Source: an uncultured virus (IMG/VR IMGVR_UViG_3300010224_000009) (taxonomy: Duplodnaviria > Heunggongvirae > Uroviricota > Caudoviricetes). From it: 64,000 nt of DNA. The notes under the pieces are model-generated. The model did no database searches and was not told the DNA's origin. It worked only from the letters and a program-made list of their open reading frames with translations. How positions within the stretch are numbered: position 1 is the first letter of the stretch; every line of letters starts with the position of its first letter. Shown one piece after another: positions 1-58,004 of this stretch. A program made the position numbers and the translations under genes. The stretch lies in the IMG/VR virus record IMGVR_UViG_3300010224_000009; one strand, written 5' to 3'.

Positions 1-415
1 GCGGCTGCTGAGGCGCAGTAGGCGCGGCAATGGCACGGCAGGCCGGGGCGCGGGCCAGCAGGGGCGGGGCGGAAAGCCCTGCCTTTTAAGCAACTTAGAC
101 TAAAATTGTAATAAAAGTTTAGATTGTTGCATTTGTCTAAAATTTTATGCGTATTTGTCGCGTATTTTAATTGATCGCATTTTAGATAAATTTGCTGCGC
201 ATTTTAATGGCATTTTAATAGATTGGATTTGTGTAAAAGTTTAGACAATTGCAATCCGTTAACCATAAGTCTGGTTTGCGGTTGCGCTTGGGGCAGAAGT
301 GTGGTAGTCGCGGGCGCGTAACGATTTGTTAACCATGTGCTGACAATGCGGTTGCGCTTGCTGGTGGCCCGTGCAATGGTCGGTCTAACAACAACAGCAC
401 AAGGGGGCTTTGCCC

Positions 416-835
416 GTGGAGTTGCTAATAGAGTGCCACCGCGAGGGGCGCAACCAAGATGGCAAGCTTATTGCGCGGGCCATACTGTTTGACGTTGACC
501 CAGACAATTGTTGCAAAACCATTAACGAAATTGCCGAGGTTGAAGTTATTGTTGACCCCGCGCATTGCTACAATCTGCGGCATTTAGCTAAAGTTGTAAC
601 GAGATGGGTAGGCAACGAACCGTTAACCTTTATGAACAAGGGGTTAACGTTTGGCCGCGCAACCGCAACCGGGACCAAGGCGCGCATGGCATTGGTGCAA
701 GTGGTGCAGCGCTGGCAACAGACCGGCAGCACACAACCGCCGCCACCGCCGCCCCGGCAACCGGAGCCGGCACAAATGCGATGGTTAACAGATGATGAAT
801 GGTTAATGGTTTTGGCCAGCCGAGGAGAACTGTAA
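416..835 (+). CDS. early hypothetical protein (Pro-rich linker near C-terminus)
   Basis: ORF 410-835; GTG at 416 follows the repeated promoter/leader (caacaacagcacaaggggg). Confidence 0.7.
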   Translation: MELLIECHREGRNQDGKLIARAILFDVDPDNCCKTINEIAEVEVIVDPAHCYNLRHLAKVVTRWVGNEPLTFMNKGLTFGRATATGTKARMALVQVVQRWQQTGSTQPPPPPPRQPEPAQMRWLTDDEWLMVLASRGEL

Positions 836-836
836 A

Positions 837-980
837 ATGCAAGACAATTTGTATGCACTTGCCACGGTGCGGCTTATGGCCCCGGCACGCAAGCCATGGT
901 TAACGATCCGTAAAGTCGGCGGCTTGCTGCACTGGCGCATTGGGCGCTTGGGCGGCAGCTTCTACCTTGCCAAGCGTTAA
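837..980 (+). CDS. small hypothetical protein, 47 aa (MQDNLYAL...KVGGLLHWRIGRLGGSFYLAKR)
   Basis: Read manually; ATG just after the upstream stop, preceded by GAGGAG; below the ORF-track cutoff. Confidence 0.6.
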   Translation: MQDNLYALATVRLMAPARKPWLTIRKVGGLLHWRIGRLGGSFYLAKR

Positions 981-992
981 CTGAATTTTAAC
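977..992. promoter_or_regulatory. CtrA consensus box
   Basis: TTAA-ctgaatt-TTAAC just upstream of the promoter copy at 1005. Confidence 0.7.
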
Positions 993-1004
993 CACGATCA
1001 GACT

Positions 1005-1072
1005 TGCCGCTTGCATGGGCGGCAGGTTATGCTATTGTCGGTCATCAACAACGCAACAGGGGTTTGCACATG
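1005..1072 (+). promoter_or_regulatory. repeated early sigma70-like promoter plus leader (TTGC..N..TGCTATTGT cggtcat caacaacgcaac RBS ATG)
   Basis: Near-identical copies at ~352-410(+), 1005-1072(+), 1700-1785(-), 1828-1912(+), 2459-2547(-), 2588-2676(+). Confidence 0.8.
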
Positions 1073-1162
1073 CGCATTTCTAGTTCAGCAATTGCCGCTG
1101 CCATGGCTTGCAGCTATGCGGTCGGCGTTTACGCGGTCGTAATGCTGGCTTGGGGGCTGTAA
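1070..1162 (+). CDS. 30-aa hydrophobic peptide
   Basis: ATG directly follows the conserved leader ggggtttgcac; MRISSSAIAAAMACSYAVGVYAVVMLAWGL. Confidence 0.5.
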   Translation: MRISSSAIAAAMACSYAVGVYAVVMLAWGL

Positions 1163-1164
1163 CG

Positions 1165-1329
1165 ATGCAGAAACTTTTAGATAAATTTGCGGCAGACCCT
1201 ACAAAGGCCAACGCGCAGCGCGTGGTCAGGTATGGCAACCGCCATCCCATGTGGCCGGTAACGGCAGGCGGCGAACGCAATATGAAGCTATGGCAAGCAG
1301 CGCAGCGCATGGCCGGTCGGGTAAACTAA
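1165..1329 (+). CDS. small hypothetical protein
   Basis: ATG at 1165 within ORF 1108-1329; followed by GC hairpin ggggc-tta-ggcccc. Confidence 0.55.
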   Translation: MQKLLDKFAADPTKANAQRVVRYGNRHPMWPVTAGGERNMKLWQAAQRMAGRVN

Positions 1330-1334
1330 CAAAC

Positions 1335-1418
1335 GGGGCTTAGGCCCCGGCACGCCTGATAGATACAATTTTAATAAAATTTTAGATATCGGGTATGGCT
1401 TGGGGCGCATGGCCCCTT
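1335..1418. repeat. convergent-terminator block, copy 1 (hairpin - AT core - hairpin)
   Basis: 30-bp exact repeat tttaataaaattttagatatcgggtatggc at 1370-1399 and 2223-2252, flanked by GGGGC/GCCCC hairpins. Confidence 0.8.
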
Positions 1419-1425
1419 GCCCCTG

Positions 1426-1701
1426 TTAAGCCTTGAACTTTACGCTGCCGCAGTTAACTTTGATGGTGCCCGTGCGGCCGTTGGGCTTGTAAACCACCGT
1501 AATAACCCAACCGCGCGTCATGCTAACAAAAGTAAAATCGGTGCCCGCCAAAAGCTTAACGATTTCCGCCTTGTAATCGTTAAAATCTTCATAATCGCGT
1601 TCGTCCTGCCAGCGGCCCCGCAGGTACATAATGCGGTCGTCGTTGGCCTTAAACCATGCTTGCATGGCGTCCAGTGTGGGCGTTGCGCTCTGTGTTTGCA
1701 T
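1426..1701 (-). CDS. early hypothetical protein (MQTQSAT...)
   Basis: ATG at 1701 follows a reverse-strand copy of the conserved leader. Confidence 0.75.
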   Translation of the reverse strand: MQTQSATPTLDAMQAWFKANDDRIMYLRGRWQDERDYEDFNDYKAEIVKLLAGTDFTFVSMTRGWVITVVYKPNGRTGTIKVNCGSVKFKA

Positions 1702-1912
1702 TGGTAAAACCCTTGTGTTTGTTTGGTATGATCGACCATACCACATAGGCCCCAAGGTGCAAGCGCAAGCGCCGATCATGGTTAACAGGCAGTTAACAGC
1801 GGTCTTAGTGATTTGTTAACCATAACCCGCATAGGTAGAAAATAACTGTTGCATGCTGCCATGGGTATGCTATTGTCGGTCATACCAACAACGCAACGGG
1901 GTTTGCACCATG
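1700..1912. promoter_or_regulatory. divergent promoter pair with CtrA boxes between
   Basis: TTAA-caggcag-TTAAC 1782-1797 and TTAG-N7-TTAAC 1805-1820 lie between two outward-facing promoter copies. Confidence 0.75.
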
Positions 1913-2179
1913 CCAATAACTGTGAAGATGTTTTACGCGACCAACGTTTACGGCCATGTATGGTGCTACGTTGAACCGGCCGAAACGCTGATGTCGTTCA
2001 CTGGCGAATATGGCTGGATGGACCGCACCGACCCGCAGTTTGGGGCAAACGCGACCCCGGTGCTTTGCAGCGGCATTAACGATTTGGCAACCCTGTTCGA
2101 GGAAGAAATGGGCGAGGACCTGCTTTCTGGCGGCAGCGGCTATAGCTACCACGAAGTTAACACGGTCGTTAAATTCTAA
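1910..2179 (+). CDS. early hypothetical protein (MPITVK...)
   Basis: ATG follows the conserved leader caacaacgcaacggggtttgcacc. Confidence 0.75.
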   Translation: MPITVKMFYATNVYGHVWCYVEPAETLMSFTGEYGWMDRTDPQFGANATPVLCSGINDLATLFEEEMGEDLLSGGSGYSYHEVNTVVKF

Positions 2180-2270
2180 AGGGGCTTGGGGCGCGGCCCC
2201 TTGCAGCCCTGATAGGTAAAACTTTAATAAAATTTTAGATATCGGGTATGGCGGGGCGCATGGCCCCTTT
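2179..2270. repeat. convergent-terminator block, copy 2
   Basis: Same structure as copy 1; lies between convergent genes. Confidence 0.8.
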
Positions 2271-2272
2271 GG

Positions 2273-2461
2273 TTACTTTAGCAGGTCTGGCGGCTGCAGT
2301 TCAAAAACGCACTTAACGCCCTTCTGCTGGTCGACCGGGCAAATGCCAAGCGCAGGCAGTTCGCACAAGTAGGCGTAGGCCTCGTCAAAGCTGGCAAACG
2401 GGCCAATATGCTGTGTTTCTAAGTTAAGCTGGCCATGCTGCCTAAAAATCACAATGTACAT
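2273..2461 (-). CDS. early hypothetical protein
   Basis: ATG follows a reverse-strand copy of the conserved leader. Confidence 0.7.
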   Translation of the reverse strand: MYIVIFRQHGQLNLETQHIGPFASFDEAYAYLCELPALGICPVDQQKGVKCVFELQPPDLLK

Positions 2462-2676
2462 GGTGCAAACCCTTGTTGCGTTGTTGTTAGACCGAACTTA
2501 CCACAATGGCCCCAAGGTGCAAGCGGGTTTGCCGATCATGGTTAACAAGTGGTAAACTGGACCGTTAACCGGGCATTAACCATTGCGCGCATAGGTAGAA
2601 AATAACTGTTGCGCGCTGCCGTGGTTATGCTATTGTCTGGTCATACCAAACAACAACGCAACGGGGTTTGCACATG
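2459..2676. promoter_or_regulatory. second divergent promoter pair with CtrA boxes
   Basis: TTAA-N7-TAAAC 2542-2557 and TTAA-ccgggca-TTAAC 2565-2580; 25-bp identity cgcataggtagaaaataactgttgc (1828-1852 = 2588-2612). Confidence 0.75.
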
Positions 2677-2997
2677 GGTGACCGCATTGAGCGCATGGTA
2701 GTAGAGGGGCAGCGGTTTACCGTTGCGGGGCTGCTGGAAGAGCACAAGGCTGGCAGGTTTAAGCCCATGGACAAGGCTGATTTTATGGCCTTTGCCGACG
2801 CACCCGAGGGCAGCAAAATGCTTAACGCGCACGACGAGGACTACGATATTAACTATACGTACATACTGGCCCCGCACAAGGCCGAGGGCGTTATACACCT
2901 TGAATGCGTTGCGCAGGTGGATGGCGGCGGCGAATACATTTATATTGCCACCGTGGACCGGGGCGGCATTGTAACGGATTGGGAGCAAATTGGCTAA
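2674..2997 (+). CDS. early hypothetical protein (acidic)
   Basis: ATG follows the conserved leader; ends before hairpin gccccggc-tttgca-gccggggc. Confidence 0.75.
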   Translation: MGDRIERMVVEGQRFTVAGLLEEHKAGRFKPMDKADFMAFADAPEGSKMLNAHDEDYDINYTYILAPHKAEGVIHLECVAQVDGGGEYIYIATVDRGGIVTDWEQIG

Positions 2998-3243
2998 AAT
3001 TGTATCTTTCGGTATGCCCCGGCTTTGCAGCCGGGGCGCGCTTAATTGGTGCCGATAGTTAAAGTTTTAGACTTGTTTGCCGTATGTTTTAATAAAGTCA
3101 CGGGCGATCTTGGTTAACACAATCCTGCCATTACGGTCGGCCAAATACCCGGCTTTTATTAAAAACTGCTGGTCGGCCTTAGTGATTTGTTTACCGACTA
3201 CAATTTTATTTAAAAGCTTGACGATCGTTGGTTCGGCCATGGC

Positions 3244-3759
3244 TTAACGCCGTGCAGTGGCCGCAAGCAAAGTATTAGCGACCCATGGGTGGTCGCGGGT
3301 AATGTACTTCTTGCGCGGCACAAGTATTGTTTGCCCGTTTGGCTGCGGCTCTTCCACCTGTTGCATGTAATAATAAGTATTGTTTGCCTCGTCTATTACT
3401 AGGCTGGCAAACTCTTGCTTTTCTTTGTTTTGCAGTTGCTTGGTTAAGCGCTGCTGGCCGTGCCATGCGTGCCGCAATGCTTCTACCTCTGCCATAGCCA
3501 TTTGGTAGGCCTCTGCAAAGGCCGCTACCCGCGCCCCGTTGGCAGCGTGCAATTCCCTACCAAGGACGGTTAATTTTGTCTTTAACAGTGGCCGCATGTG
3601 GCCATGGTGCTTAACCATGGACGGTATTAATTCGTTAACCTTTTGCGTTAACCGATCGTTAGCCTTAACAACCTCGTCTATATATGATTGCAATATAGCT
3701 AAATCTTTATCGAACTCTGCCTGTGGCTTTTGGGTAAACGGTTCGTAATTAGTGCGCAT
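3244..3759 (-). CDS. coiled-coil hypothetical protein
   Basis: 171-aa ORF with upstream AGGAG on the minus strand. Confidence 0.75.
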   Translation of the reverse strand: MRTNYEPFTQKPQAEFDKDLAILQSYIDEVVKANDRLTQKVNELIPSMVKHHGHMRPLLKTKLTVLGRELHAANGARVAAFAEAYQMAMAEVEALRHAWHGQQRLTKQLQNKEKQEFASLVIDEANNTYYYMQQVEEPQPNGQTILVPRKKYITRDHPWVANTLLAATARR

Positions 3760-4275
3760 TTTAGATATCTCCTGCCGTTACTTGCCTGTTGGTTGTATTG
3801 CGTGGCCCGTGGTTGTGGTAGCCGGTTGCATGGCCAGTTAGCACAATTTTATGTAACTAAGCAAACGATTTTACGCAAATGGTACGCTTTACCGTTTTCC
3901 GAACATTTTTAGTAAAATGCGCACGGGGCGCTGCCGGGTGGCCGTGGGGCGCGGCCCGTGGGCCGAAAGCCATGCCCCAACAGGCAGTTAGCAAAGCGTT
4001 AAGGTCGGAATTAAAGGTTTAATAAAATTGTCGTACGTTCACAATGCCCCTTTTTACTATACTGTGGAGGCAACTATTTTAAATTAATGGTAAGTTTTAT
4101 TTATTAATTAAAATAAGTTAGGTTTAAAGTATAGGGAAACGGCCCTACTTTGTGTGCCGGGTGAACTCTTTAAGCAACAGCTAATATAATAGGCTGCAAG
4201 TTGTCTAAATGTTTAGAGATCGCAGACCGCTTATATTCTGTTTGTGTGGGGCGCAAGCCTAAAGTCGGATCATGG

Positions 4276-4291
4276 TTAACGGGTAGTTAAC
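4276..4291. promoter_or_regulatory. CtrA consensus box
   Basis: TTAA-cgggtag-TTAAC, preceded by the same gatcatgg context as 1782 and 2542. Confidence 0.7.
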
Positions 4292-4674
4292 AGCCGCAGG
4301 CCCCGGCAAGGCCGGTTTCCATCTCGTTAACCTCGGTTATTACATGCGTACATGCGTATATGGAAAATGACCGGGCAAATGGCACGTTGCGCAGGGGCAG
4401 CGCAGCACGTACCTAGCACCAACAACGACCGCGCTAAGCCACCTAGCAGCCCCGCCCACGCGGTCGGCAGGCATGCAAGCTACCACCCTAGCCGCAGCGC
4501 GGCACGCGCGCCACGGGCCAGCTATGGCGGTCGTCCTACCCATGGCAACAGCCCCGACAATGGTTAACGGCCTAAACAGTTTAGTTGCATAACCTGTATT
4601 ATGGAACTTAGATTAAACAGTTTAATTTAACGACCTAAAAGTTTAAATAACCTTTAAAATGTTTAAATGGATGG

Positions 4675-4690
4675 TTAACAAACAGTTAAT
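4675..4690. promoter_or_regulatory. CtrA consensus box
   Basis: TTAA-caaacag-TTAAT. Confidence 0.6.
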
Positions 4691-4947
4691 ACGATCGCTA
4701 AAGTTTTATCTGTTAAAGTTTGTCTAAAATTTAAGCTAAAAACAATCTACTCCTGTCGGCTCTCTAGCTCCGCGCTCCCTCGCGTCTCGGTGTCTGGCAA
4801 ATTCTGCCAAAATTCTTTTCAACGAATGGTTGCGGTTTAAAACCCTGCAACTTGGGGCCACGGGCCGAGAAGAAAATGCCCACATCAGTCACCAGAGAAA
4901 ATTTTACCCCTTGCCAAGCACATAAAATAGCTGCTATTTACCCTCCC

Positions 4948-5640
4948 AGAGCGAAAAGGCAGCCGAGGAAGTCCGGTAAAACGGGCGACGGTCCGATCTC
5001 ACGTATTAGACCATCCGTGAAGGAAGACACACCGATAGCTGCCCTGTCGAGCTAGGATATAAGTCCAAGTACGGTAGCAACCCGAAACGGAGTAGTCATC
5101 TCTCGCTGGGTGACGAATGGTCCAGGGTCAGTGTTGAGCCTTCATCACAAATCGCTGCAACCGCAAGCCGGATAGTGCATTCCTAGCCTTCTAGCTCTTC
5201 CAGTTTAACGAATGCCCCCTCAAGGGCCGCATGTACGATATATTGCGGTCGGCGAGCAGTGGGTAACGGATCGACTTGCTGTTATGGTTGGTCGATCCGT
5301 TCAATTTTGCGGAGCGCCGCGAGCGCTTGTCAACGGGCAACGGTCATCCCCCTTCCGACCCCGACCGTTGGACGCAAGCCGGGATGAGGCGAAGTCACTC
5401 ACCGCTGAACCCGGCACCACTCGTTAGTCTGCCATCGGGCCGCAACACCCTGATGACTAATCCTAATCCGGTTGCAGAGTGCCGGAGGAAGCATGGATGG
5501 AAAGCCTATGGCATAACGAAATCCATGTACTGGGCCAAGTCAGGATGGTCCAGCGCGTCAGAATGAGGCTAATGACAGAAGCCTGACGGAAATATTGTCT
5601 CAGAAAAGGGCATGGTCAGAAATGGCTGTGCCCTTTTCGC
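4948..5640 (+). ncRNA. candidate large structured non-coding RNA (~690 nt)
   Basis: Upstream TTGCCA(4911)..TATTTA(4935); many helices (5265-5275/5291-5301, 5155-5163/5469-5477, 5338-5345/5363-5370, 5491-5498/5521-5528); terminal GAAA-capped hairpin 5603-5638; no credible ORF. Confidence 0.65.
5603..5640 (+). terminator. 16-bp hairpin with GAAA loop, probable terminator or RNA 3' end
   Basis: gaaaagggcatggtca-gaaa-tggctgtgcccttttc (with G-U pairs). Confidence 0.7.
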
Positions 5641-5880
5641 GTTCATAGCCGCCGCAAATTCTGCCATAAATGTTTTCAATAAGCCTAGTTACCCAAAACC
5701 GTTTAACGCTGCTTGTTGCGTGGAATAAAAACACACTATCTAATGCGCAAATTTGCTTGCCATTGAGAGAGCCTTGAGCTAGTTCTGACACTGCCTGCTC
5801 GGGCTTCGTTGGCCGGTCGCCCTCCTCGCTCCAAACGTAACGGTGACCGGCCACTCCATCTCTCGGCACGAGGGACTATC

Positions 5881-6051
5881 GTGCAAGAAGAGAGCATCCT
5901 ACACAAATTCGTGGAGAAATCTGACGAATTGGCCCTGCAAGTCAATGAGCTTGGGGTCATCCTGGACCCGCGCATATACGACGACTGGTTCGTCCTGCTG
6001 AAGAGGGTCAAGGAATGGATGCAAACCTGCGAAAAATCAACGACGGACTAG
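5881..6051 (+). CDS. hypothetical protein
   Basis: GTG at 5881 after GAGGGA. Confidence 0.55.
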   Translation: MQEESILHKFVEKSDELALQVNELGVILDPRIYDDWFVLLKRVKEWMQTCEKSTTD

Positions 6052-6221
6052 ATGAGCTCCTCAAGAAGACGCAGCACATCAATCGGATCATGTTGAAGCA
6101 GGACGACATCATCACGACCTTGCTGCTGAACTTCCGCAAACGGCCAAATCTGGTCAATCCAGACGTTTTCGCTTGGTTTGAGCATGAAGTTGAGCAACTG
6201 AAAGCGCTCAAGTATGAATGA
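6015..6221 (+). CDS. hypothetical protein
   Basis: 68-aa ORF with AAGGA upstream. Confidence 0.6.
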   Translation: MDANLRKINDGLDELLKKTQHINRIMLKQDDIITTLLLNFRKRPNLVNPDVFAWFEHEVEQLKALKYE

Positions 6222-6298
6222 ACGGGCCATGTTCGGCATGCTTTTGCTCGGCACGATCGCCTTTGCGGCGGTAATTTTGATCGGAGGACTGCTTCAAC

Positions 6299-6775
6299 AT
6301 GGCTAAAGTTCGTCCAGAAACCCGCCTGAAACGCTTTGTGAGGGGTAATTATCCCGGATGGAGCGAAGCTTATGAACCCGGCCTGGGGTCAGGGGTCGGC
6401 TATCCTGACATTCAGGTGTTGGGGCCAAGCGGGAAATTGCTCCCGATCGAGCTAAAAATCGGTGTTGTGAAGGCGGGAAGGCTGCATCCGAGCGAAGTTC
6501 GGGGTCCGCAGGTGGTCTGGCACCGCGAATTTGCCCAATCTGGCGGCATTTCAGTGATGCTTATCGGGCTGGAAACCGGCAATGCTTCCGGCAAATTCGA
6601 TCTGTTTTTCGTGCCAGGAATGGACATGATCGACTGGAAAGAGGGATACGAATTCGACAAATTGCACCATATTATGGCTGACGACCCGCTTCTGAGTGAG
6701 AGATTTGTCGGTTTGGTGCAGTATTTCCTCAAGGAAAGCCCTGTCAGCCCCTTGCGCGCTGTGGCGGTCGCATAA
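6299..6775 (+). CDS. PD-(D/E)XK nuclease, VRR-NUC / Holliday-junction resolvase-like
   Basis: GYPDIQV...IELKIG...QVVWHREF..SGG motif. Confidence 0.75.
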   Translation: MAKVRPETRLKRFVRGNYPGWSEAYEPGLGSGVGYPDIQVLGPSGKLLPIELKIGVVKAGRLHPSEVRGPQVVWHREFAQSGGISVMLIGLETGNASGKFDLFFVPGMDMIDWKEGYEFDKLHHIMADDPLLSERFVGLVQYFLKESPVSPLRAVAVA

Positions 6776-6808
6776 TATAACGAGGGCCGAACCTACGGAG
6801 CCGCTCCC

Positions 6809-7450
6809 GTGACCGAGATTACCGCCGAAGACCTGACGATCAAGGACCTGTTCCTCAAGGCCGAGCTTGACAAGGTCGATTACGACCCCGAACTGGCGAC
6901 CATGTTCTGCCAGAACATCATGGAAGGCAACTCCATGATCGAGGCGGCGTGCGGCGTCTATGCTTCCGACGACACTCCCGGCATGTGGGAAAGCGACGAT
7001 CCGGACGAGCAGAAGCAGCTTGATCGGGAATTGCGCAAGCACGGGGCCGCGCTTCTGCGGAAATTTAAGCGCTGGATGGTGCTCAACGACCGCTTCGACC
7101 AGATGGTCAAGCTGGCGCTCCAGCAGCGCTGCTATGCCTACGTCGAAGAGATGGTCGAGATCGCTGACGATGCGACCGACGATGCTGTGATGGGGGCCAC
7201 CGGGCCGACGATCAACGGTCGCGCCATTCGGCGTGCCGAACTGATGATCAACACCCGCAAGTTCGTGGCTTCCAAGCTGCTGCCGAAGGTTTTCGGCGAC
7301 AAGACCCAAATGGAACTGACCGGCGCAGACGGCAAGGACCTCGGTCCGGTTGCGTTCAATATTCAACTTATCCCATCGGGCGCTTTTGTCACGGCAGAAC
7401 AGGCGCTCAAGGAAGCAGAGGAGCGAGACGGCGGTGCTCCAGCCACCTAA
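6809..7450 (+). CDS. terS: terminase small subunit
   Basis: EEMVEIADD...AIRRAELMINTRKFVASKLLPKVFGDK..ELTGADG, typical TerS C-terminal half. Confidence 0.8.
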   Translation: MTEITAEDLTIKDLFLKAELDKVDYDPELATMFCQNIMEGNSMIEAACGVYASDDTPGMWESDDPDEQKQLDRELRKHGAALLRKFKRWMVLNDRFDQMVKLALQQRCYAYVEEMVEIADDATDDAVMGATGPTINGRAIRRAELMINTRKFVASKLLPKVFGDKTQMELTGADGKDLGPVAFNIQLIPSGAFVTAEQALKEAEERDGGAPAT

Positions 7451-7478
7451 ACCGAGAAGTGTCGGTGATCGTACCGGC

Positions 7479-7835
7479 ATGGAACTGATCAGCCTCGCAC
7501 AACGGCTGAAAGTTCGTGAGAATTTCGCAAAGCAGGCCAACAGGCACCTGCAAGGACAAGAAATCAGCGAAGCCAACACCAACGACATTATCACCTATCT
7601 GGCAAGATATGGCGGTCGGGTCGAGGTTCGTGGCTTGGGGACATTTTTTGTTGTCGATGTGCCTGCAAAACCGCGTGTCGTGAACGGTTTAACTATTGTC
7701 AGACCTGCACGGCGCATAGTAGACTTCAAGCAGTCGACACTACTCCGCGACATGCTGAACAACGACTTTTTCAGCGATGAGGTTCCAACGCCCAACAGCG
7801 ATTATTTCGTTGAAGTGCGGAACATCATGCTGTAG
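7479..7835 (+). CDS. HU/IHF-like DNA-binding protein
   Basis: GRVEVRGLGTFFV..VPAKP....TIVRPARRIVDFKQSTLLRDMLN matches the HU beta-arm motif. Confidence 0.75.
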   Translation: MELISLAQRLKVRENFAKQANRHLQGQEISEANTNDIITYLARYGGRVEVRGLGTFFVVDVPAKPRVVNGLTIVRPARRIVDFKQSTLLRDMLNNDFFSDEVPTPNSDYFVEVRNIML

Positions 7836-7941
7836 GCGATCTCCGTAATTGGCTGGCCCTTGGAGATCGTCGACATTCGGCGGCGGGGACACTGACCGCA
7901 CTCTGGTTTCCGGGGTGCGGTCGATCTCTAAGAGGGCTTGA

Positions 7942-8425
7942 ATGGACACCTTTCATCTCTGCCAGCCTGCTCGACAAGAGCTTGTCCCCACGAACAATTT
8001 CGTTGCTGCTGGCGGCGGCAATGACGGCGGCTCAACGACCAACATTCCGTTCGAGGTCTCTTCCTCGTTCACGGGCGGTTCCGACGCCGGTGAGNNNNNN
8101 NNNNNNNNNNNNNNNNNNNNNNNNNNNNNNNNNNNNNNNNTCCGACGACGGTGAGGCTGTCTGGACTTATGCCGCAACGCAGAAGTTCACCATTCCGGCC
8201 AACTTTGTCAATTCCCGCGCCGCTGTCGACCCCGATACGTTCAACGGCTCGTTCCGGATCATGCTGAACGGTGTGCAGATCGGCACGGTCAGCTTCGTCA
8301 ATGGCGTCGAGAGCTTCACCGGCGCTGGCGGCACCGTGGTCCCTGACGACGAGTTGCAGTTGGTGGCCAATTCGGCCTACGACTTCACCAGCATGTCGAT
8401 TTCCCTCCGTGGAGTGCGCGCCTGA
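7942..8425 (+). CDS. putative virion/fibre-associated protein spanning an N gap
   Basis: 5' part (7942 frame) and 3' part (ending 8425) joined across Ns 8095-8140, whose flanks are near-identical. Confidence 0.6.
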
Positions 8426-8862
8426 TGCTGACCTCCGTTCCGGCGGTCGCGTCCGCCATGGCCAATGCTGCTGCCTCGAAGGCTGAAGAAGGCAACCTGC
8501 TGGCCAATTCTCGGATCGTTCTATACGCTGGCCCGGTTCCAGGAAACGCTCAGTCTGCTCTCGTTGGGGCCAACACCGTCCTTGCGACGATCAATTTGGA
8601 CGCCACAAACCCGTTCCAAGCGGCAGAAATTGACACCGACATGCGTGTGGCCGAATGTCTGGCCACCAATATCCCGGACACCCCGGCCTCGGCAAACGGC
8701 ACGGTGACCTTCTATCGTCAGTTCAACCGCAACAACGAGGTCATTTGGCAAGGCATTGTCACTGGCCCGGACGACGGCGGCGATCTCACCTTGACCAGCG
8801 TCAACGTCATAGCAGACGTTAACGTTATCTTGCAGCGGTACTCAATCCGCGTGCCGTACTAA
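8425..8862 (+). CDS. ~140-aa fibre-subunit paralog 1
   Basis: Shared pattern lYaG..P.nA..al....LatI.l....F..A...........A.A.Gt.tFyR.......v.wqG.V.....GGD..l.svn....v.v. Confidence 0.75.
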   Translation: MLTSVPAVASAMANAAASKAEEGNLLANSRIVLYAGPVPGNAQSALVGANTVLATINLDATNPFQAAEIDTDMRVAECLATNIPDTPASANGTVTFYRQFNRNNEVIWQGIVTGPDDGGDLTLTSVNVIADVNVILQRYSIRVPY

Positions 8863-8873
8863 GAGGAAAACCA

Positions 8874-9308
8874 ATGACAATCACCACTTCTGTCGAAGTC
8901 GCCATTGCCGAACTCGACGCAGTTGTCGATCGTGCCGACAGCGGCACCACCAACCCTTCCGCCCGCTTCACGATCTATGCTGGAGCAATGCCTGCCAACG
9001 CCCGCGCGCCGCTTGGCGATGCCACCGCCCTTGTGACCATTGCCATGGGAAATCCAGCTTTTGGTGATGCAGCCGACAACGCTGCTGCAAGCGCTGCTGA
9101 GGCTCTGGCCAACGCTATCGCCGACACTCCGGCTCTCGCTACCGGCACGGCCAGCTTCTATCGCCTCGTGGATCGTGACGAAACTGTGCTCTGGCAGGGC
9201 ACCGTGACCGAACCGAACCAAGGCGGCGACATGGAAGTTTCCGCGATCAACGTCGTGACCGGCGTCAACATCGTCGTGCAGTCGTTCGCGATGCGCGCTC
9301 CCTACTAA
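8874..9308 (+). CDS. ~140-aa fibre-subunit paralog 2
   Basis: Same motif pattern as 8425. Confidence 0.75.
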   Translation: MTITTSVEVAIAELDAVVDRADSGTTNPSARFTIYAGAMPANARAPLGDATALVTIAMGNPAFGDAADNAAASAAEALANAIADTPALATGTASFYRLVDRDETVLWQGTVTEPNQGGDMEVSAINVVTGVNIVVQSFAMRAPY

Positions 9309-10887: not shown

Positions 10888-11717
10888 TGTCAGATTTTGA
10901 CTTTTCGCCCGCTCAGATAACTGGAAAAGCTGCCACGTTCAGCTTTTCTACGAGCGTGGCCGAAGTCCTGACAATCAATGCAGTCAGCAAGCTGCCAGCC
11001 AATCGGTTGCAGTCCAAGACGCAGTTTGGCCTTGCCGTCAATGCAAGGTCGACGCTGCCACGGCTGCAGTCCAAGACGCAGTTCGGCATCGCCGTCAATG
11101 CGAAAAGCAAGTTGCCCCGGCTGCAATCCAAGACGCAGTTTGGTATTGCGATCAATGCCGTTGGCAAGCTGCCCCGGCTGCAATCCAAGGCAATGATCAC
11201 CAAGAAGGAGTTCAAGGACAAGTACCTGTTCTTGTCTCCGGCACGCGGCACGGCCTCGTCCGTAACGTTCACGTTCACCAAGCCTGCCATCAGCGGCCTC
11301 ATTGCGCGATCATATTTGCCGCGCATTCAGAGCCGCGCCGTTCTTACCCCGCCGCAGAACATAAACTCTATTTCGGTCCTCCCAAGACTGACTTCTGCGA
11401 CAGATGTGTATGTTCCGTTTGCGATCGTGGCAAATCAAGAGTTGCCGCGCCTCCAATCGTTCACGCGCATCCTTATTCCGCCGATCACAATTGTCGGCCA
11501 ATCCCCATTGCCCCGGCTCCAATCGCAGGCAACGGTGCAGGTGCCATACATCATGGTCGCCAAGGCCCGGTTCCGGTTGTTCTCGGCTGGCAGCATGAAT
11601 GTCAGCGTCAACGCCGTAGGCGATGGCTACTTTGGGGCGCTTCAATCCGACGGCTTGGCGGTCGTTGATGGTGAAATCACAAAGCGTCGTCGGCGCACTT
11701 CAACCAGTGTGAACTGA
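10887..11717 (+). CDS. repeat protein (LPRLQS repeats), putative fibre scaffold
   Basis: About 8-10 repeats of 19-22 aa. Confidence 0.7.
   Translation: MSDFDFSPAQITGKAATFSFSTSVAEVLTINAVSKLPANRLQSKTQFGLAVNARSTLPRLQSKTQFGIAVNAKSKLPRLQSKTQFGIAINAVGKLPRLQSKAMITKKEFKDKYLFLSPARGTASSVTFTFTKPAISGLIARSYLPRIQSRAVLTPPQNINSISVLPRLTSATDVYVPFAIVANQELPRLQSFTRILIPPITIVGQSPLPRLQSQATVQVPYIMVAKARFRLFSAGSMNVSVNAVGDGYFGALQSDGLAVVDGEITKRRRRTSTSVN
10975..11190 (+). repeat. 57-bp tandem coding repeat, ~4 copies
   Basis: tgca(g/a)tccaag at 11008, 11065, 11122, 11179. Confidence 0.85.
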
Positions 11718-11784
11718 CAACTTCGCACTTGTCCGTTGGCCAGTCTGTGCCGTAATATGCCGCCAATTGTAGCGGTCGGACCCC

Positions 11785-12222
11785 ATGATTGGCTTAGCTT
11801 ACCTCGTCGCAGAAGACATGCTTGACCTGCTTAACGAGAAGTTAGGCGAGAAGGCGGTCGTGCGTTTTTATTCAGGGACGCGGCCCGCTTTTGCTCATGA
11901 CGCTATTCCTTCCGCCACCTTTCTTGGTCAGGTTGCTTTCTCTGAGTTACCGTTCCAACATGCAATTCTGCTGAATGGTGCGGTGGTGCTCTACTTGAAC
12001 AATCTGCCCGCGCCGGGTACGGTGATCAATACTGGTGTCGCTGATTTCTTCCGCGCCTACGGTGGCGACGGCACGGATCAGGGACCAAATAGCGGTCAAG
12101 TCATTATGGACGGCTCTGTGTCGAACATGGATGGCTCCGGCGACTGCAAACTTCTCGACACTTCGCTGATCGCTGGTCAGCAAATCAATCTTATGTCTTG
12201 GCAGATCAGCCTGCCGCTTTAA
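11785..12222 (+). CDS. ~140-aa fibre-subunit paralog 3
   Basis: FYSGTRPA...TGVADFFR...DGSV....GSGDCKL. Confidence 0.7.
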   Translation: MIGLAYLVAEDMLDLLNEKLGEKAVVRFYSGTRPAFAHDAIPSATFLGQVAFSELPFQHAILLNGAVVLYLNNLPAPGTVINTGVADFFRAYGGDGTDQGPNSGQVIMDGSVSNMDGSGDCKLLDTSLIAGQQINLMSWQISLPL

Positions 12223-12232
12223 GGAGATCACA

Positions 12233-12652
12233 ATGGCATCGTATATCTCAGCGGCTGCTGCTATCGCTGCCGTCAACGCAATGACAGCGCTCGTCAATGC
12301 GAACGGCCCCGGCAAGCTCCAGATTTTCGGCGGTGCCATGCCTGCCAATGCGGACGCCGCGCTCAGCGGTCAGCCGTTGCTGGCTGAGTTCCCGCTTGCC
12401 GCTGACGCCTTCCAGGACGCCTCCGACACGATCAATGGCGCTGTTACGCAGGCCAATCCGGTCACGGCTCAGGACGCTGCTGCGACCGGAAATGCCACTT
12501 GGGGACGGGTCGTCGATGGCGACGACAACACCGTGTTCCTTGGGGACGTTTCCACCCCGGCAGGCAACGGCGCAATCAAGATTTCTTCCGTTGCCCTGAC
12601 GCTCGGCGTCGAGGTTTCGGTGATCTCGCTCACCTACACGCAGCCGAAGTAA
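12233..12652 (+). CDS. ~140-aa fibre-subunit paralog 4
   Basis: IFGGAMPANADAAL...ATGNATWGR...GDV. Confidence 0.75.
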   Translation: MASYISAAAAIAAVNAMTALVNANGPGKLQIFGGAMPANADAALSGQPLLAEFPLAADAFQDASDTINGAVTQANPVTAQDAAATGNATWGRVVDGDDNTVFLGDVSTPAGNGAIKISSVALTLGVEVSVISLTYTQPK

Positions 12653-18460: not shown

Positions 18461-18682
18461 ATGCAAGAAGAGAAGTACGACGNNNNNNNNNNGCGCACGG
18501 CGCAAGCTATTGCGGAAGCAGATACAAAGATTGGTCGCGCCCTTGGCATACGACCCGAAGCAGACCTGAACCGAAAGCAGCTTCGCCAGCAGCGCGCGAA
18601 AATGCGCCCGTTCAAACGCAAGCTGGAAAAGCTCAAGCAGGAACAGGCTCGTATTCAGGCGAAGATCGATGCCGCTACGTGA
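18461..18682 (+). CDS. basic coiled-coil protein (spans N gap; start uncertain)
   Basis: ORF track; Ns at 18483-18492. Confidence 0.45.
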   Translation: MQEEKYDXXXXRTAQAIAEADTKIGRALGIRPEADLNRKQLRQQRAKMRPFKRKLEKLKQEQARIQAKIDAAT

Positions 18683-19113: not shown

Positions 19114-20316
19114 ATGCCTGCGGTTCAAAACGTCCAAATCGGAGAGGCGTTCGGGCCGCTGTTTCAGCCTTATCGATATAAGGCTCTCTTTGGCGGTCGA
19201 GGCAACGGTAAATCTATCGGTATCTCGACCGCACTGGCCATGATCGCGCACGGCTCCAAGAAGCGTATTGTGTGCGGTCGTCAGTTCCAGAACTCGATCC
19301 GGGATAGCTCCAAGTCCACGATCGAAAACCGCATTGAAGCCTTGGGGCTCCAGCGCGAGTTCAACGTTACGCACAACGAGATCGTCCATCGGCGCAACGG
19401 CAGTCGCTTCACCTTCGTCGGTTTGGAGCGCAATAAGGACAGTATCAAGTCGCTCGACGACGTAGATATTTTCTGGATTGAAGAAGCCAGAAACATGTCT
19501 AACGAGAGCTTGGAAATCCTTATCCCGACCATTCGTAAGCCGGGGTCTGAAATCTGGGCCTCCTGGAACCCGGTGTTCCCTGACGATCCAATTGATGCCT
19601 TCTTCCGTGGCTCCCATCCGCCACGCAACGCCTACATTCGCAAAGTCAACATCAGCGACAATCCTTGGTTCTACGCTTCGCCGATGGCGCTCGAAATGGA
19701 GCGCATGAAGCAGGCCAACTATCAGAGATATAAGCATGTTTGGCTTGGTGAATACGACGAGCTTGATGATAGCCGCATCTTCACGAATTGGTCCGTGGGC
19801 AGAATGCCGATTAGCGACCGCGATCGTCCTTATTTCGGTCTCGACTTTGGTTTTAGCGGCGACCCGTCGGCGCTGATGAAGCTTTACGTCTTCGAGAAGT
19901 TGAAGACGATTTATATCTCTCAGGAAATGTACGGGCGCTTTACGCTGACTGAATTGCCTGAGATGATGAATACAGTTGACGAGGTCCGCAAGTACCCGAT
20001 CGTTGCGGACAACTCCCGCCCGGAAGACATTCATTTCTTGCGCACAAAGGGCTTCAACTGTGTTGCATCTAAAAAGGGTGCTGGTAGTATCAGAACCGGT
20101 ATTAACTGGCTTCTCGGCTACAAGATAGTTATTGCGCCCGAATGCGTCAACATGCAGAATGAGGCGCGGCTGTATAGCTGGCAGACAGACAAGCTGACGG
20201 GCAAGGTTCTGCCGGTAACATGTGATGCTGACAACCATGGTTGGGATGCCGTTCGCTACGCGACGGAAGAATGCCGTTCAAAGGTGAAGACCGTCGTGAA
20301 AAGGTTCAAGTTCTAA
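19114..20316 (+). CDS. terL: terminase large subunit (PBSX-type)
   Basis: GGRGNGKS Walker A, WIEEA Walker B, GLDFGF and DNHGWDAVRY nuclease motifs. Confidence 0.97.
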   Translation: MPAVQNVQIGEAFGPLFQPYRYKALFGGRGNGKSIGISTALAMIAHGSKKRIVCGRQFQNSIRDSSKSTIENRIEALGLQREFNVTHNEIVHRRNGSRFTFVGLERNKDSIKSLDDVDIFWIEEARNMSNESLEILIPTIRKPGSEIWASWNPVFPDDPIDAFFRGSHPPRNAYIRKVNISDNPWFYASPMALEMERMKQANYQRYKHVWLGEYDELDDSRIFTNWSVGRMPISDRDRPYFGLDFGFSGDPSALMKLYVFEKLKTIYISQEMYGRFTLTELPEMMNTVDEVRKYPIVADNSRPEDIHFLRTKGFNCVASKKGAGSIRTGINWLLGYKIVIAPECVNMQNEARLYSWQTDKLTGKVLPVTCDADNHGWDAVRYATEECRSKVKTVVKRFKF

Positions 20317-21662
20317 TGGCATTCTCGATCCTTAACATGTTTCGGCAGAAGGCGCGTCCGGTCCGCAATCTATTGGATGACCCGTCGCGTTACTCGGTGC
20401 AGGTATTCGCCAACAGCGCTCGTCATGGCGTGACGTACCAGAACATCATTGCTGCTGAGCAGGCAATGCGACACCCTGTTGTATTTCGGTGTTTGCATAA
20501 GATCGCGCTCGCGGTGCAGGACGTTCCGTGGTATATCATGCAGGACCCCAACTCCACTGAGAAGTTGGATAAGAAGAAAGCGAAGGAAATCCAGGACGTT
20601 CTGGATCATCCAAATGAAACGATGTCGGCGTCGCAGTTGCGGTACTGGCTTGGGATCAACAAGGCCGTCTATGGGCGCTTTGCGCTCAAGATCGGCGCAT
20701 TGACGACAGGAGGACCCAATGGGCTTTACCCCTTATCCCAAGGACAATTCAAAACCAAGTTCAAGCGAAACGGAACTATCGACAAATACGTCTATGGCCC
20801 CAACGGTGAAGAAACGCTACAAACGCGCCGTCAGGTCGACCCAAAATTCGATGGAGCTTTCACAAAGCCCTTCGCCTACGAATACATCACGCCCAACATC
20901 GAAGGAGTGATGGACCCGCTGGCCATGGTGGCGGCGAAGAACAACACGCCGCTCAACGCGATCAGGACGCCTGCCGATGTTGTGCAGCTTCTGCTTGAGC
21001 GCGCCCACGATACCGCCTCCGGCCAGCCAAATGTGAAATACATCATCTCCGGCGAGAAGACGCTTTCCGCCGACGAAGAAGATGAGATCATGGACGAGAT
21101 CGAAGACCGCAAGGTTGGGGCCGAGGAAAGCGGTAATATCCTGTTCTTGGCCAATACTTCGATCAAGGTTGACACGCTCAAGAATGGCATGGAAGACATT
21201 CATACCAAGATACCCATGGATGACATGTCGCGCATGATCTACAGCAACATGGGCATTCCGGTCGCGTTGGCAGGTATCGGCTCCTCCGACGCAGCGAAAT
21301 TCGCTGGTAACTACGAAAGCTCCCGTCGCTCGTTCTTCGAGGACACCATTATTCCGAACTACTTGGGGCCAATCGCCGACGGTATCACCGAAGCAATCTG
21401 CCCTCCCGGCGGAAAAATCTTCTTTGATCTGGATGCTATTCCAGGACTTGCAGACGCTCGGGCAAATAAAGCGAAAACCTTGCAGGGCGTCATGTTTTTG
21501 ACAGACGCAGAAAAGCGAATACTGTGTGGCTTCCCTGCATCACCGGAGAGATACGCCGATGCCAACCTCCCTTCGTCTCAAGAAGGCACAAATTCAAGCC
21601 AAGAAGCTGGATCTGAAGATAACGCCAGCGTCCGACGCAGAGTTAAAAGCACTCGGCGATGA
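20316..21662 (+). CDS. portal protein
   Basis: Follows terL; HPVVFRCL..IA, LDHPN..MS, LT.AEKR...GFP, HK97-like features. Confidence 0.9.
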   Translation: MAFSILNMFRQKARPVRNLLDDPSRYSVQVFANSARHGVTYQNIIAAEQAMRHPVVFRCLHKIALAVQDVPWYIMQDPNSTEKLDKKKAKEIQDVLDHPNETMSASQLRYWLGINKAVYGRFALKIGALTTGGPNGLYPLSQGQFKTKFKRNGTIDKYVYGPNGEETLQTRRQVDPKFDGAFTKPFAYEYITPNIEGVMDPLAMVAAKNNTPLNAIRTPADVVQLLLERAHDTASGQPNVKYIISGEKTLSADEEDEIMDEIEDRKVGAEESGNILFLANTSIKVDTLKNGMEDIHTKIPMDDMSRMIYSNMGIPVALAGIGSSDAAKFAGNYESSRRSFFEDTIIPNYLGPIADGITEAICPPGGKIFFDLDAIPGLADARANKAKTLQGVMFLTDAEKRILCGFPASPERYADANLPSSQEGTNSSQEAGSEDNASVRRRVKSTRR

Positions 21663-24268: not shown

Positions 24269-24697
24269 ATGCGGCGGGTTCTCGCCGAGACAAACGTGGT
24301 GCGGGCCGGTGATCTGGTCCGCATCTCTCTTAGACTACCAAAGTCTGAACACTTGGGGCGCATCACAATCTGGTCTCGGCAAAATGACGATGATTTCAGC
24401 CCCTACATTGACGAAAGGCAGATCGAGGCAGCGACAAGCTCCGATAAGCCAATAATGCTCAAGCCTATGGAATTTCGTCTCACAGAAAGACGTCGGCACG
24501 TATCTTCTGAGTTCTATTCTGAGACGACGCAGCAGTTCCGAATNNNNNNNNNNCAAGAAATAGACAGCCATTCGGACCCCAAAGTCAAAGCGAGGATCAG
24601 AAGATATGGAAAAACTTCAACGGCGTTCAGACGGAGTTGCCGAAACGCTTTCCGGACAATTCGCGATTTTGCCCACGCGCATTTCTGGCAAGGATGA
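24269..24697 (+). CDS. hypothetical protein (spans N gap; end uncertain)
   Basis: ORF track; Ns at 24544-24553. Confidence 0.45.
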   Translation: MRRVLAETNVVRAGDLVRISLRLPKSEHLGRITIWSRQNDDDFSPYIDERQIEAATSSDKPIMLKPMEFRLTERRRHVSSEFYSETTQQFRXXXXQEIDSHSDPKVKARIRRYGKTSTAFRRSCRNAFRTIRDFAHAHFWQG

Positions 24698-52046: not shown

Positions 52047-52570
52047 CCTCTTTTATACATTTCCAGGAAGCATCGCCCCAAGGCCATAGTGTCTGGTCCG
52101 GCGCGGTGGTGGTCAGAGAAGTCAACACCGAACAGCTTCTCGTGCAGCTTACCAAGGCTAAGACGATAACCTTGCAGCCATTCTGTCGCCTCAACCGTGC
52201 AGATTACAGGCGGCAGTTTTATTTCCATGCCAAGGCGCATGAACTCAATGGTCAGCATGTCGGTATCGAACGCGGCATTGTGTGCCACGATCAAATCGAA
52301 CTGGCTCATAAAGTCTGCAATTTCCTGAGCGTGTGACTTGAAGTAGTTGCAGTTCGCAACCATCTCGTCATTGATGCCTGTGATCCGATGAATTTCGTCT
52401 GTGATCTTCACTGGAGGCTTGATGAGCAGGGGCAGCGTGGTCCCAAGCTCGTCTTTCTCTGTGTCAGCCTCTACGCAGAAATATTCGATGATATGAGGCT
52501 GCTTGGCTAGGGGCCTACCGAAATTATCGATAAGCCCCGTGGTTTCCGTATCGAATATCCCGGCTCTCAT
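52037..52570 (-). CDS. dnaQ: DEDDh 3'-5' exonuclease (Pol III epsilon-like)
   Basis: FDTETTG, VAHNAAFD, HRA..D. Confidence 0.92.
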   Translation of the reverse strand: MRAGIFDTETTGLIDNFGRPLAKQPHIIEYFCVEADTEKDELGTTLPLLIKPPVKITDEIHRITGINDEMVANCNYFKSHAQEIADFMSQFDLIVAHNAAFDTDMLTIEFMRLGMEIKLPPVICTVEATEWLQGYRLSLGKLHEKLFGVDFSDHHRAGPDTMALGRCFLEMYKRGWV

Positions 52571-54055: not shown

Positions 54056-54065
54056 ATTCGCTCCG

Positions 54066-55223: not shown

Positions 55224-55224
55224 G

Positions 55225-56543: not shown

Positions 56544-56545
56544 GG

Positions 56546-57382: not shown

Positions 57383-57526
57383 TGGGTTTGGTTCCTGGAG
57401 CGCTTGAAAACGGCCTATCCGTTCACATTTTGGCTCAACTACCATGTTTAACCGCTTTTGCAGGCGGTGCAACGTTTAAAAGTTTAAATGTGCTAAATAC
57501 CTGTTAATAAAGGGCTTTCAATGTGT

Positions 57527-57580
57527 ATAAAATAGTTTGCCTTTTAGCGGGCCGCGTGCCATAGTGCCGCCAGTTAGTTT
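57527..57580 (+). promoter_or_regulatory. promoter for the right-hand accessory operon
   Basis: ATAAAATAGTTTGCCTTTTA, then GCCATAGT at -10 spacing. Confidence 0.65.
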
Positions 57581-57593
57581 GGAGCGATCTAAC

Positions 57594-57884: not shown

Positions 57885-58004
57885 TACTTGAACTGTTACA
57901 GTTTTTCTTCCAAGACGGTTGGCACTGGATCGGTGGCCTCGTTTATATCGCTGCCGTGCTCGGTGCGTTCGGCATGGGCTTGGGGCTTATCGTGGAGTTG
58001 ATCC

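Follow-up and report, generated by a model that had tools for sequence, protein, structure and literature searches.

Why should a run of DNA crowded with the dinucleotide TC lie exactly where a long stretch that avoids TC comes to an end? The question is raised by positions 4745–4795 of a 64,000-nt sequence from an uncultured tailed phage (hereafter the window, meaning the whole stretch of DNA that was analyzed). A first-pass annotation of these letters saw in the tract a deliberate boundary mark and proposed that its signal was encoded in dinucleotide density. Here we describe the tract, the depleted domain that it borders and the counterparts of both in three related phages, and we weigh the functions that such a locus may serve.

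The Phage Genome and Its Relatives

The genome that carries the tract is that of a myophage with a circular map of ~74.7 kb. The 10,704 nt lying between the end and the start of the window on this map were supplied by a near-identical viral record (G001), which has all sampled words in common with the window. The + strand carries structural genes between 6.3 and 43.4 kb; between 43.8 and 57.5 kb, genes for replication and nucleotide metabolism lie on the − strand, and small + strand genes follow. Among the products encoded are a DUF5906 primase-helicase and a PolIII-alpha-like polymerase, and the nucleotide-metabolism genes include those for a YfbR-like HD protein, a deoxyribosyltransferase-like protein and PNKP. 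The cumulative GC skew reaches its minimum at ~56.8 kb, and its rise stops at ~4.3–4.8 kb, where the slope changes.

Rightward of the tract, the first conserved gene is a 158-aa ORF that starts at 6299 on the + strand and has an Hjc-like fold, an assignment to be taken as a lead only. It is followed by terS at 6809–7450 (+ strand; Pfam PF20901, E = 4.6e-17) and, beside terS, by an HU/IHF-like ORF at 7350–7835 (+ strand). The first-pass annotation had placed terS some 2 kb downstream of the tract, and the distance is indeed 2.06 kb. The large terminase subunit, TerL, belongs to the Pfam family Terminase_3 and is 50.1% identical to those of two Synechococcus phages; its gene lies 14.4 kb away from the tract. 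Scans against NCBIfam and Pfam gave no further function for the early ORFs and the 52–57 kb cluster, and neither positions 1–8000 of the window nor a 521-aa ORF had a close DNA or protein match in the phage collection.

Relatives were found by a terS alignment search, while single-protein scans of viral contigs with terS or with a 171-aa early ORF recovered none. Relatives A (G002; 75,275 nt) and B (G003; 75,899 nt) are viral contigs, and relative C is a contig of 76,146 nt binned in a metagenome-assembled genome (MAG). Further terS homologs (P0003–P0016), encoded on contigs of up to 40 kb, are 52–67% identical. Statements about four genomes refer to the window phage together with A, B and C.

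A Purge of TC.GA in the Early-Gene Domain

The depletion of TC to the left of the tract is pronounced. In positions 1–4744 the observed/expected ratios (O/E) of TC and GA are 0.40 and 0.45, compared with 1.09 and 1.05 in the rest of the window. TA has a normal ratio there (1.06, vs. 0.59 in the rest), and GTTAAC sites number 22 in 1–4744 against 2 in the remaining 59 kb. The annotation had rightly reported a zone avoiding TC, but the length of 4.7 kb that it gave was that of a zone clipped by the start of the window. The purged domain continues for ~9 kb past this point, starts after an AT-rich iteron block situated 13,741 nt upstream of the tract and comprises about 12–14 kb of the 74.7-kb genome, that is, 18% of it. 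A purge upstream of terS is present in all three relatives, with A showing the strongest and B and C the weakest. The domain of A measures 16.8 kb and that of B 13.2 kb, and the range across the clade is 12–17 kb.

The right third of the domain (positions 1–4744) holds divergent small genes and repeated modules, which are predicted to consist of sigma70-like promoters (TTGCAN, 16 nt, TATnnT) and a shared 5'UTR. The left two thirds hold + strand genes, including those for DUF932, DUF2786/DUF7168 and WYL-domain proteins. In the upstream early genes the O/E of TC in the three codon phases is 0.45/0.58/0.49, and in the genes of the zone within the window 0.20/0.28/0.21. GA is normal only at codon positions 1–2, where it belongs to Asp and Glu codons, and is low in the other two phases. 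The untranslated DNA of 3900–4744 is purged as well, up to the first box of the element described below, with 19 TC against 47.4 expected and 19 GA against 57.9 expected. Since TC is low in every phase, GA is spared only in the manner just given and untranslated DNA is affected too, we conclude that the purge acts on the duplex step TC.GA and not on codons. In the same early genes the ratio of TT is raised to 1.5–1.8 and that of AA to 1.1–1.6.

Along the genome the purge has a sawtooth profile. At the element the combined O/E of TC and GA jumps from 0.35 to 1.00 in the window, from 0.50 to 0.98 in A and from 0.54 to 0.98 in B. Farther upstream the purge becomes gradually weaker (Spearman rho = -0.80, p = 6e-4 in the window; -0.67, p = 0.009 in A; -0.48, p = 0.08 in B), with a slope that comes in part from the GA kept in Asp and Glu codons of + strand genes. 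On its left side the purge has no sharp limit, and depletion is slight in the gene that comes first after the left AT-rich block.

A Conserved Two-Box Element at the End of the Purge

The tract at 4745–4795 has the sequence ATCTACTCCTGTCGGCTCTCTAGCTCCGCGCTCCCTCGCGTCTCGGTGTCT, as originally given. The recount confirmed that it contains 11 TC and no GA on the + strand, together with 11 CT and a single AG (C 21, T 16, G 11, A 3). Such a density is rare in this genome. Stretches with at least 10 TC or GA per 51 nt form five clusters on the two strands of the 64-kb window, four of which reach at least 11 (4738–4806, 56067–56133, 7132–7198 and 21044–21131). Over the 59.2 kb that lie rightward of the tract, the mean is 3.3 TC or GA per 51 nt, and 11 are reached by 0.03% of all 51-nt segments.

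Judging from the comparison of the four genomes, the tract is this phage's copy of a short, conserved, single-copy noncoding DNA element. In all four the element has the same plan, namely ATCTACTCC, a spacer of 26 nt and TC[G/A]CGTCTC, followed by weaker similarity. Box 1, ATCTACTCC, occupies 4745–4753 on the + strand and is invariant, its first base falling on the side of normal composition. The spacer (4754–4779, + strand) varies apart from an invariant central TCT and is CT-rich in this genome only; its length is constant at 26 nt, since the match spans 44 nt in each of the four genomes. Box 2 (4780–4788, + strand) reads TCGCGTCTC here and TCACGTCTC in relative C, and occurs once in the window. 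Thus, two boxes of 9 nt are held at a fixed distance while the sequence between them diverges. The whole element is found once per genome in all four, and box 1 has one exact copy in the window, where its near-matches are no commoner than in shuffled sequences. The hexamer CGTCTC of box 2 was also considered as a special site in its own right and rejected, its 10 copies being below the 18 expected.

To the right of box 2, weaker conservation extends over ~70 nt (4789–4856, + strand, from the alignment of the window with B). This flank includes a palindrome, GGTTTAAAACC, at 4834–4844 (+ strand), and, in the window genome only, a small hairpin followed by a T-run (4795–4809, + strand). Positions 4739–4856 are 77.5% identical to relative B over 120 nt (E = 3e-20), which makes them the strongest noncoding match within positions 1–7000 of the window. 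Between B and C the identity is 0.91–0.96 from -100 to +100 of the element and ~0.6–0.7 around it. The flanking early ORFs, on the other hand, are hardly conserved. Among the stop-to-stop ORFs of 1–6400 and 57001–64000, tblastn found matches in the relatives for only six, and three of these six are frames over the element itself. Similarity in several frames and on both strands points to conservation at the level of DNA.

The element sits at the step of the sawtooth TC.GA purge in this myophage clade. A maximum-likelihood two-rate fit to the density of TC and GA placed the end of the purge at +1 nt from the first base of box 1 in the window (2-lnL support from -76 to +16) and at -4 nt in relative A (from -50 to +40). 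In the relatives with a weak purge the change point is broader, lying at +219 nt in B and +454 nt in C with wide support. A homologous element at the end of the purge in four of four genomes, and within 5 nt of the change point in two of them, supports the proposal that the tract is a nonrandom boundary mark.

The idea that the mark consists of TC density did not fare as well. It had been suggested that relatives might keep a TC-dense tract at this boundary despite divergence of sequence; a homologous element does lie there in all four genomes, but its saturation with TC is not kept. The 51 nt equivalent to the tract contain 6 TC in A and 7 in both B and C, compared with 11 here. These values exceed the genome mean of 3.3–3.4 TC in every case, but they place the tract in the top 8% (A), 3% (B) and 4% (C) of its own genome, compared with 0.03% in the window. 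Five of the 11 TC sit inside the two invariant boxes and the remaining six are lineage-specific. Relative A, which among the relatives has the strongest purge, has the fewest TC in the tract, where G (18) outnumbers C (15) and the spacer is G-rich. The relatives therefore keep a sequence element, with its fixed boxes, and not a TC-saturated patch, and the TC richness seen here is mostly a by-product of that element.

Further copies or homologs were sought outside the four genomes. A scan with a longer pattern of the right flank returned G003 (relative B) again and nothing else. The loci retrieved by motif scan (L001, L030, L032 and L048–L053) were attributed to chance, as they are found on unrelated contigs without a purge and mostly in coding DNA. 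Weak terS loci (L004–L020, L021–L023, L024–L029 and L035) were discarded for being too short or too distant; in L023, the 3.3 kb upstream showed no purge and no element.

We found no conserved RNA structure at the element (consensus fold of -6.2 kcal/mol, with a covariation term of 0.06), while the sequence of the window element taken alone folds with z = -2.1. Rfam gave no match in the window at the gathering threshold and none at E ≤ 1 in 4200–6400, and no tRNA was found in the region of the element. With fixed boxes, fixed spacing, a single copy and no RNA structure, the element shows the features of a putative recognition site of the protein-bound type.

The Untranslated Control Region beside the Element

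The element is the outer edge of an untranslated control region of ~850 nt that is made up of a GC-rich block, a 24-bp dyad and AT-rich iterons. The GC-rich block occupies 4381–4558. The AT-rich block, with iterons of the TTTAGACAA/TTGTCTAAA type, spans 4560–4744 and directly precedes the tract, just as the annotation had described. Within it, the four-genome alignment revealed three invariant words, TTAACA (4675–4680), GTTAA (4685–4689) and TAAAAT (4725–4730). The dyad, GTTGCATAACCTGTATTATGGAAC, lies at 4584–4607 and is present in all four genomes, in an orientation that is inverted here with respect to the other three. Similar AT-rich iteron blocks occur at 86–250 of the window and ~13.7 kb upstream of the element. 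A copy of the element itself was not found at the left edge of the purged domain. A candidate there was rejected, as its resemblance came down to AT-rich words and one shared ATCT.

Discussion

Conserved cis-acting elements at the early/late junctions of phage genomes are of known kinds, such as cos, pac, iss and late promoters. The two-box element is, for its clade, a previously undescribed member of this general class of cis-acting junction sites. What is unusual is that an early domain purged of a duplex dinucleotide stops within a few nucleotides of a conserved element in independent genomes. A full-text literature search retrieved no such pattern of dinucleotide depletion in phage early regions, a result that does not prove its absence.

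We tentatively favor the reading that the element is a protein-recognized terminus or packaging boundary, with the purged domain entering the cell first. Proteins would recognize the element as the point on the circular map at which the ends of the linear virion DNA are joined, and the element would serve as a packaging-start site for the terminase (cos-like) or as an entry-boundary site, upstream of the Hjc-like–terS–HU-like group. Packaging would run rightwards from the element. The purged early domain would be packaged last and would be the first DNA to enter the cell, at a time when no protective function has yet been made. DNA on the right of the element would be the last to enter and would therefore need no purge. 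A sharp step next to a gradient would fit such a junction of linear ends. Consistent with a terminus are the single-copy homologous element with its constant 26-nt spacing in four of four genomes, the peak of conservation at the element, the step at the change point, the sawtooth purge of duplex DNA, the position 2.06 kb upstream of terS with the Hjc-like and HU/IHF-like ORFs beside it and the end of the rise of cumulative GC skew near the element.

In phage lambda, the cos region is organized as cosQ-cosN-cosB with binding sites for IHF and terS. Our element resembles it in being a single-copy, multi-box candidate protein-binding noncoding region upstream of terS with an HU/IHF-like gene nearby, and in its proposed position where the two map ends join. 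It differs in ways that also count against a terminus, being 2 kb from terS and 14 kb (14.4 kb) from terL, with a TerL of the Terminase_3 family; no dyad symmetry around a putative nick site was seen by eye. Further arguments against a terminus are that the left edge of the purge is unsharp and lacks a copy of the element, and that none of the four assemblies breaks at the element. The breaks fall at 2038–2117 of the window in G001, inside terL in G003, 129 nt after terL in G004 and ~2 kb from terL in G002, although all four behave as circular, which makes this weak evidence. The gradient of the purge could instead mirror classes of immediate-early and delayed-early genes.

A comparison with phages 7-7-1 and Milano (Schmittlotzvirus), whose TerL proteins are 44.5% and 44.1% identical to that of our phage, respectively, points in both directions. 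These phages likewise have terS and terL physically apart and a small + strand gene unit followed by an iteron-rich untranslated region and the terS block. In contrast, both the TC.GA purge (O/E of TC of 0.93–1.44 across 47 bins of one kb) and the element are absent from 7-7-1. In favor of a terminus, phage 7-7-1 was reported to circularize via cohesive ends, which were proposed without being located (PMC3517404). For Milano, a relative of 7-7-1, the accessible text gives headful packaging as predicted by PhageTerm (PMC6588377), which counts against a terminus, since headful packaging leaves no fixed ends.

A close rival, which we regard as possible though less than probable, is that the locus is the promoter and conserved 5' leader of a rightward middle or late transcription unit. 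The AT-rich block and the dyad would then be regulator-binding DNA, transcription would start a few nucleotides before box 1, the boxes would be a site recognized by a protein or by RNA polymerase (qut/nut/ops-like) at the head of a + strand structural operon of ~38 kb, and the step in composition would be the boundary between early and late transcription. All confidently assigned genes from 6299 to 43409 are on the + strand, and a rightward early promoter follows each of the other two AT-rich iteron blocks. The words TTAACA and TAAAAT are invariant in the four genomes, the latter ending 12–14 nt before box 1, but the alignment offers no acceptable -35 sequence at 16–18 nt upstream of TAAAAT in any genome, and the -10 candidates of the TTAACA-N18 type lie at a variable distance from box 1. 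In a consensus scan, the only sigma70-like matches on the + strand of 1–7000 were in the AT-rich block (4573–4602 and 4675–4704), which is weak evidence because the same scan misses the phage's own early promoters. A single copy and the lack of RNA structure are what one expects of a site read as DNA or as linear RNA; nevertheless, the 26-nt spacing of the boxes is unlike promoter geometry, the hairpin after the tract (4795–4809) is not conserved beyond the window genome, and Pfam scans found no sigma, Q, N or NusG-like protein, and thus no cognate antiterminator for a leader of the lambda pR'-qut type. A promoter also gives no reason for promoter DNA being purged up to box 1. It seems quite improbable to us that the locus is a replication origin or some other array of protein-binding sites whose edge just happens to fall at the step. 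Iterons, AT-rich and GC-rich blocks and a dyad are all present, the primase-helicase and the polymerase are encoded, the slope of the GC skew changes at the element, and in 7-7-1 the corresponding map position is taken by an untranslated region rich in iterons. However, the iterons of our phage recur in three blocks spread over 14 kb, two of them upstream of early promoters, and therefore fit a regulator better than an origin; the minimum of the cumulative GC skew, the usual signal of an origin, is at ~56.8 kb; and the boxes and their exact coincidence with the step are left unexplained.

The iss of phage T5 is described, in the available part of the source, as a large untranslated region with repeats and palindromes, conserved beside poorly conserved coding DNA, and the avoidance of a sequence together with restriction sensitivity is there confined to the first-entering early segment (bioRxiv 10.1101/866236). 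Our phage is similar, in that an early, first-expressed segment is bounded by a repeat-rich, conserved untranslated region. The element and this region could accordingly be an injection-stop site at which entry halts until early proteins are made, with the leading end at the far left and the purged domain as first-step-transfer segment, an idea that we consider unlikely. The untranslated region, rich in repeats and palindromes, is indeed conserved next to early coding sequence with little conservation. In the left two thirds of the domain, transcription of the + strand early genes runs towards the element, and the domain amounts to 18% of the genome. On the other hand, no paired DnaA boxes lie near the element, in contrast to the iss: TTWTNCACA has two matches in 64 kb (at 230 and 57522), with 3.2 expected, and none in 3900–4900. 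The avoidance reported in the accessible account of T5 is of a hexamer site, whereas here it is of the dinucleotide TC.GA and is strongest beside the element and weakest on the far side, the opposite of what left-first entry predicts. Moreover, ours is an unrelated myophage of ~75 kb with terminal repeats and two-step entry not in evidence, and neither repeats nor ends are in evidence at the left block. The suggestion that the tract acts through its TC density, as a modified or bound patch serving as roadblock, decoy or pause signal, is poorly supported, and we give it very little credence. The 51 nt do exceed the genome mean in all four genomes, the phage carries the YfbR-like HD, deoxyribosyltransferase-like and PNKP genes, and strict GA-dinucleotide DNA modification exists elsewhere: the accessible texts report dPreQ0 at GA in Pseudomonas phage iggy, with a 2-nt context as the unit of the enzyme (PMC10484667), and modification at GA and GGC in CAjan (PMC7544227). 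These cases show that a phage DNA-modifying enzyme can read a 2-nt context such as GA (TC on the other strand), but a domain-limited purge was not found reported in their accessible parts (PMC10484667, PMC7544227), and a DpdA/TGT gene was detected in none of the three clade records searched. The 6–7 TC of the relatives, five of them fixed by the boxes, and the low count of A despite the strongest purge among the relatives argue against a role for density. An ordinary cause, be it the 3' end of a small minus-strand gene, a Rho-utilization (rut) tract or chance, is equally hard to credit. An ORF of 49 aa at 4736–4885 (− strand), with an Arg/Glu/Asp-rich tail, is open across the tract, where it encodes ...RHRDARERGAREPTGVDCF*, but stops interrupt this frame in relative A and the matches extend over several frames on both strands; we rejected it as a protein gene, and the tract is likely noncoding, as first proposed. 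Although the tract has much C and little G (C 21, G 11) and most of it is predicted to be unpaired, this composition is not kept in the relatives (G 18, C 15 in A), so a rut tract is unsupported. With the last early gene of the + strand ending at 2997, there is no obvious transcript for which a terminator would be needed at the tract, and chance is excluded by the conservation of the element.

In our assessment, then, two functions compete: the element may mark a terminus or entry boundary, or it may be the leader of a late promoter. A wider claim, which appears rather doubtful to us, would be that the clade keeps a TC.GA-purged, TT.AA-enriched domain of 12–17 kb ending to the nucleotide at the two-box element as part of a staged entry of the T5 type, independently invented, in which the element would be a physical terminus or stop. 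If staged entry were true, it would imply a DNA-targeting activity with dinucleotide specificity alone, which would work while only the purged domain is inside the cell. Candidates would be a host deaminase or nuclease directed at TpC, the phage's own host-DNA-degrading enzyme or a context-specific modification.

The two favored readings would each have consequences for the biology of these phages. The authors of the 7-7-1 study report having found no evidence on how transcription is timed (PMC3517404), and if the element is a late promoter leader, it would offer a way to approach temporal control, of which no instance is known in this group. If it is instead a terminus or entry boundary, the polarity with which the DNA of an uncultivated phage enters its host would be readable from sequence alone, and the purge would point to a new activity that reads TpC in DNA.

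Early-gene domain and its regulation

The TC-poor zone corresponds to an early-gene domain of 12–17 kb that is depleted in the duplex step TC.GA. It covers window positions 1–4744 and about 9 kb of DNA upstream of the window start (locus L043), and is found in all four clade genomes, occupying loci L002/L031/L045, L003/L033/L046 and L034 in the relatives. The depletion does not depend on reading frame, Asp and Glu codons retain GA, and TT/AA is raised in the same domain. Phage 7-7-1, a distant Agrobacterium phage relative, is without TC.GA depletion.

The small early genes of both orientations are driven by repeated promoter/5'UTR cassettes of predicted promoters (window 1011–1068, 1849–1908 and 2609–2673, and on the minus strand 1707–1797 and 2467–2557), in which TTGCAN, a 16-nt spacer and TATnnT are followed by CATACCAACAAC..GGGGTTT ahead of the start codon. 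Paired sites of the form GTTAAC-N5-GTTAAC(CAT) precede the −35 of these early modules by about 15 nt, as at window 1778–1796, 2538–2556, 4272–4290 and 4671–4689; an early regulator probably binds these pairs. GTTAAC occurs 22 times in window 1–4744 but only twice in the remaining 59 kb.

Another cassette-type promoter (TTGCGC ... TATAAG; minus strand, window ~4130–4255) faces leftward into DNA devoid of ORFs, where a hairpin comes next (4132–4147), and may produce a small RNA of about 75 nt. Rfam gave weak matches to YrlA, a Y RNA-like family with tRNA-like arms, in relative C (L040 1799–1904, plus strand; 29.9 bits, E 0.0038) and relative B (L041 1829–1935, plus strand; 23.9 bits), neither of which reaches the gathering score of 69. 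Both lie some 300–430 nt to the right of the conserved two-box element that marks the right edge of the domain, and neither relative A nor the window genome has a YrlA match.

Left of the domain, ATGGCCGGTCTGATTTT forms two to three direct repeats about 400–500 nt beyond the left AT-rich block in relatives A and B (−17.2 kb and −13.6 kb from the element, respectively), while a different 30-mer, present as two repeats, occupies the equivalent place in the window genome. Among the 15 upstream plus-strand ORFs scanned in L043, three match DUF932 (also TIGR03299, phage/plasmid-like protein), DUF2786/DUF7168 and WYL-domain families (8052–9035, 5466–6158 and 11697–12413, all given as (−) in L043); two are within the purged domain and one is just beyond its left edge. 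Proteins of these families are frequently encoded in the DNA that conjugative plasmids transfer first.

Terminase genes and contig ends

A stretch of 11.7 kb containing virion genes separates terS (window 6809–7450) from terL (19114–20316), an oddity likewise reported for phage 7-7-1. Directly upstream of terS, a 158-aa ORF (6299–6775, plus strand) has no Pfam match; in the Atlas it is modelled with a structure similar to Holliday-junction resolvases of the Hjc type (TM 0.60/0.82), a likeness we take only as a lead.

The linearisation point falls at most about 3.5 kb from terL in three of four independent assemblies: inside terL (G003), 129 nt past it (G004) and ~2 kb beyond it (G002). This clustering may be due to chance, or could hint at some peculiarity of coverage or sequence variation near terL. 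N runs interrupt the window at 8095–8140 (46 nt), 18483–18492 and 24544–24553 (10 nt each).

Nucleotide-metabolism genes

A nucleotide-metabolism-like cluster (52567–57472, minus strand) encodes PNK/HAD-PNKP, a nucleoside 2-deoxyribosyltransferase-like protein, a Thy1-like protein (weak match), a YfbR-like HD 5'-deoxynucleotidase and proteins like Pam3 gp33 and gp34. Judging from its gene content, the cluster may hint at a non-canonical base.
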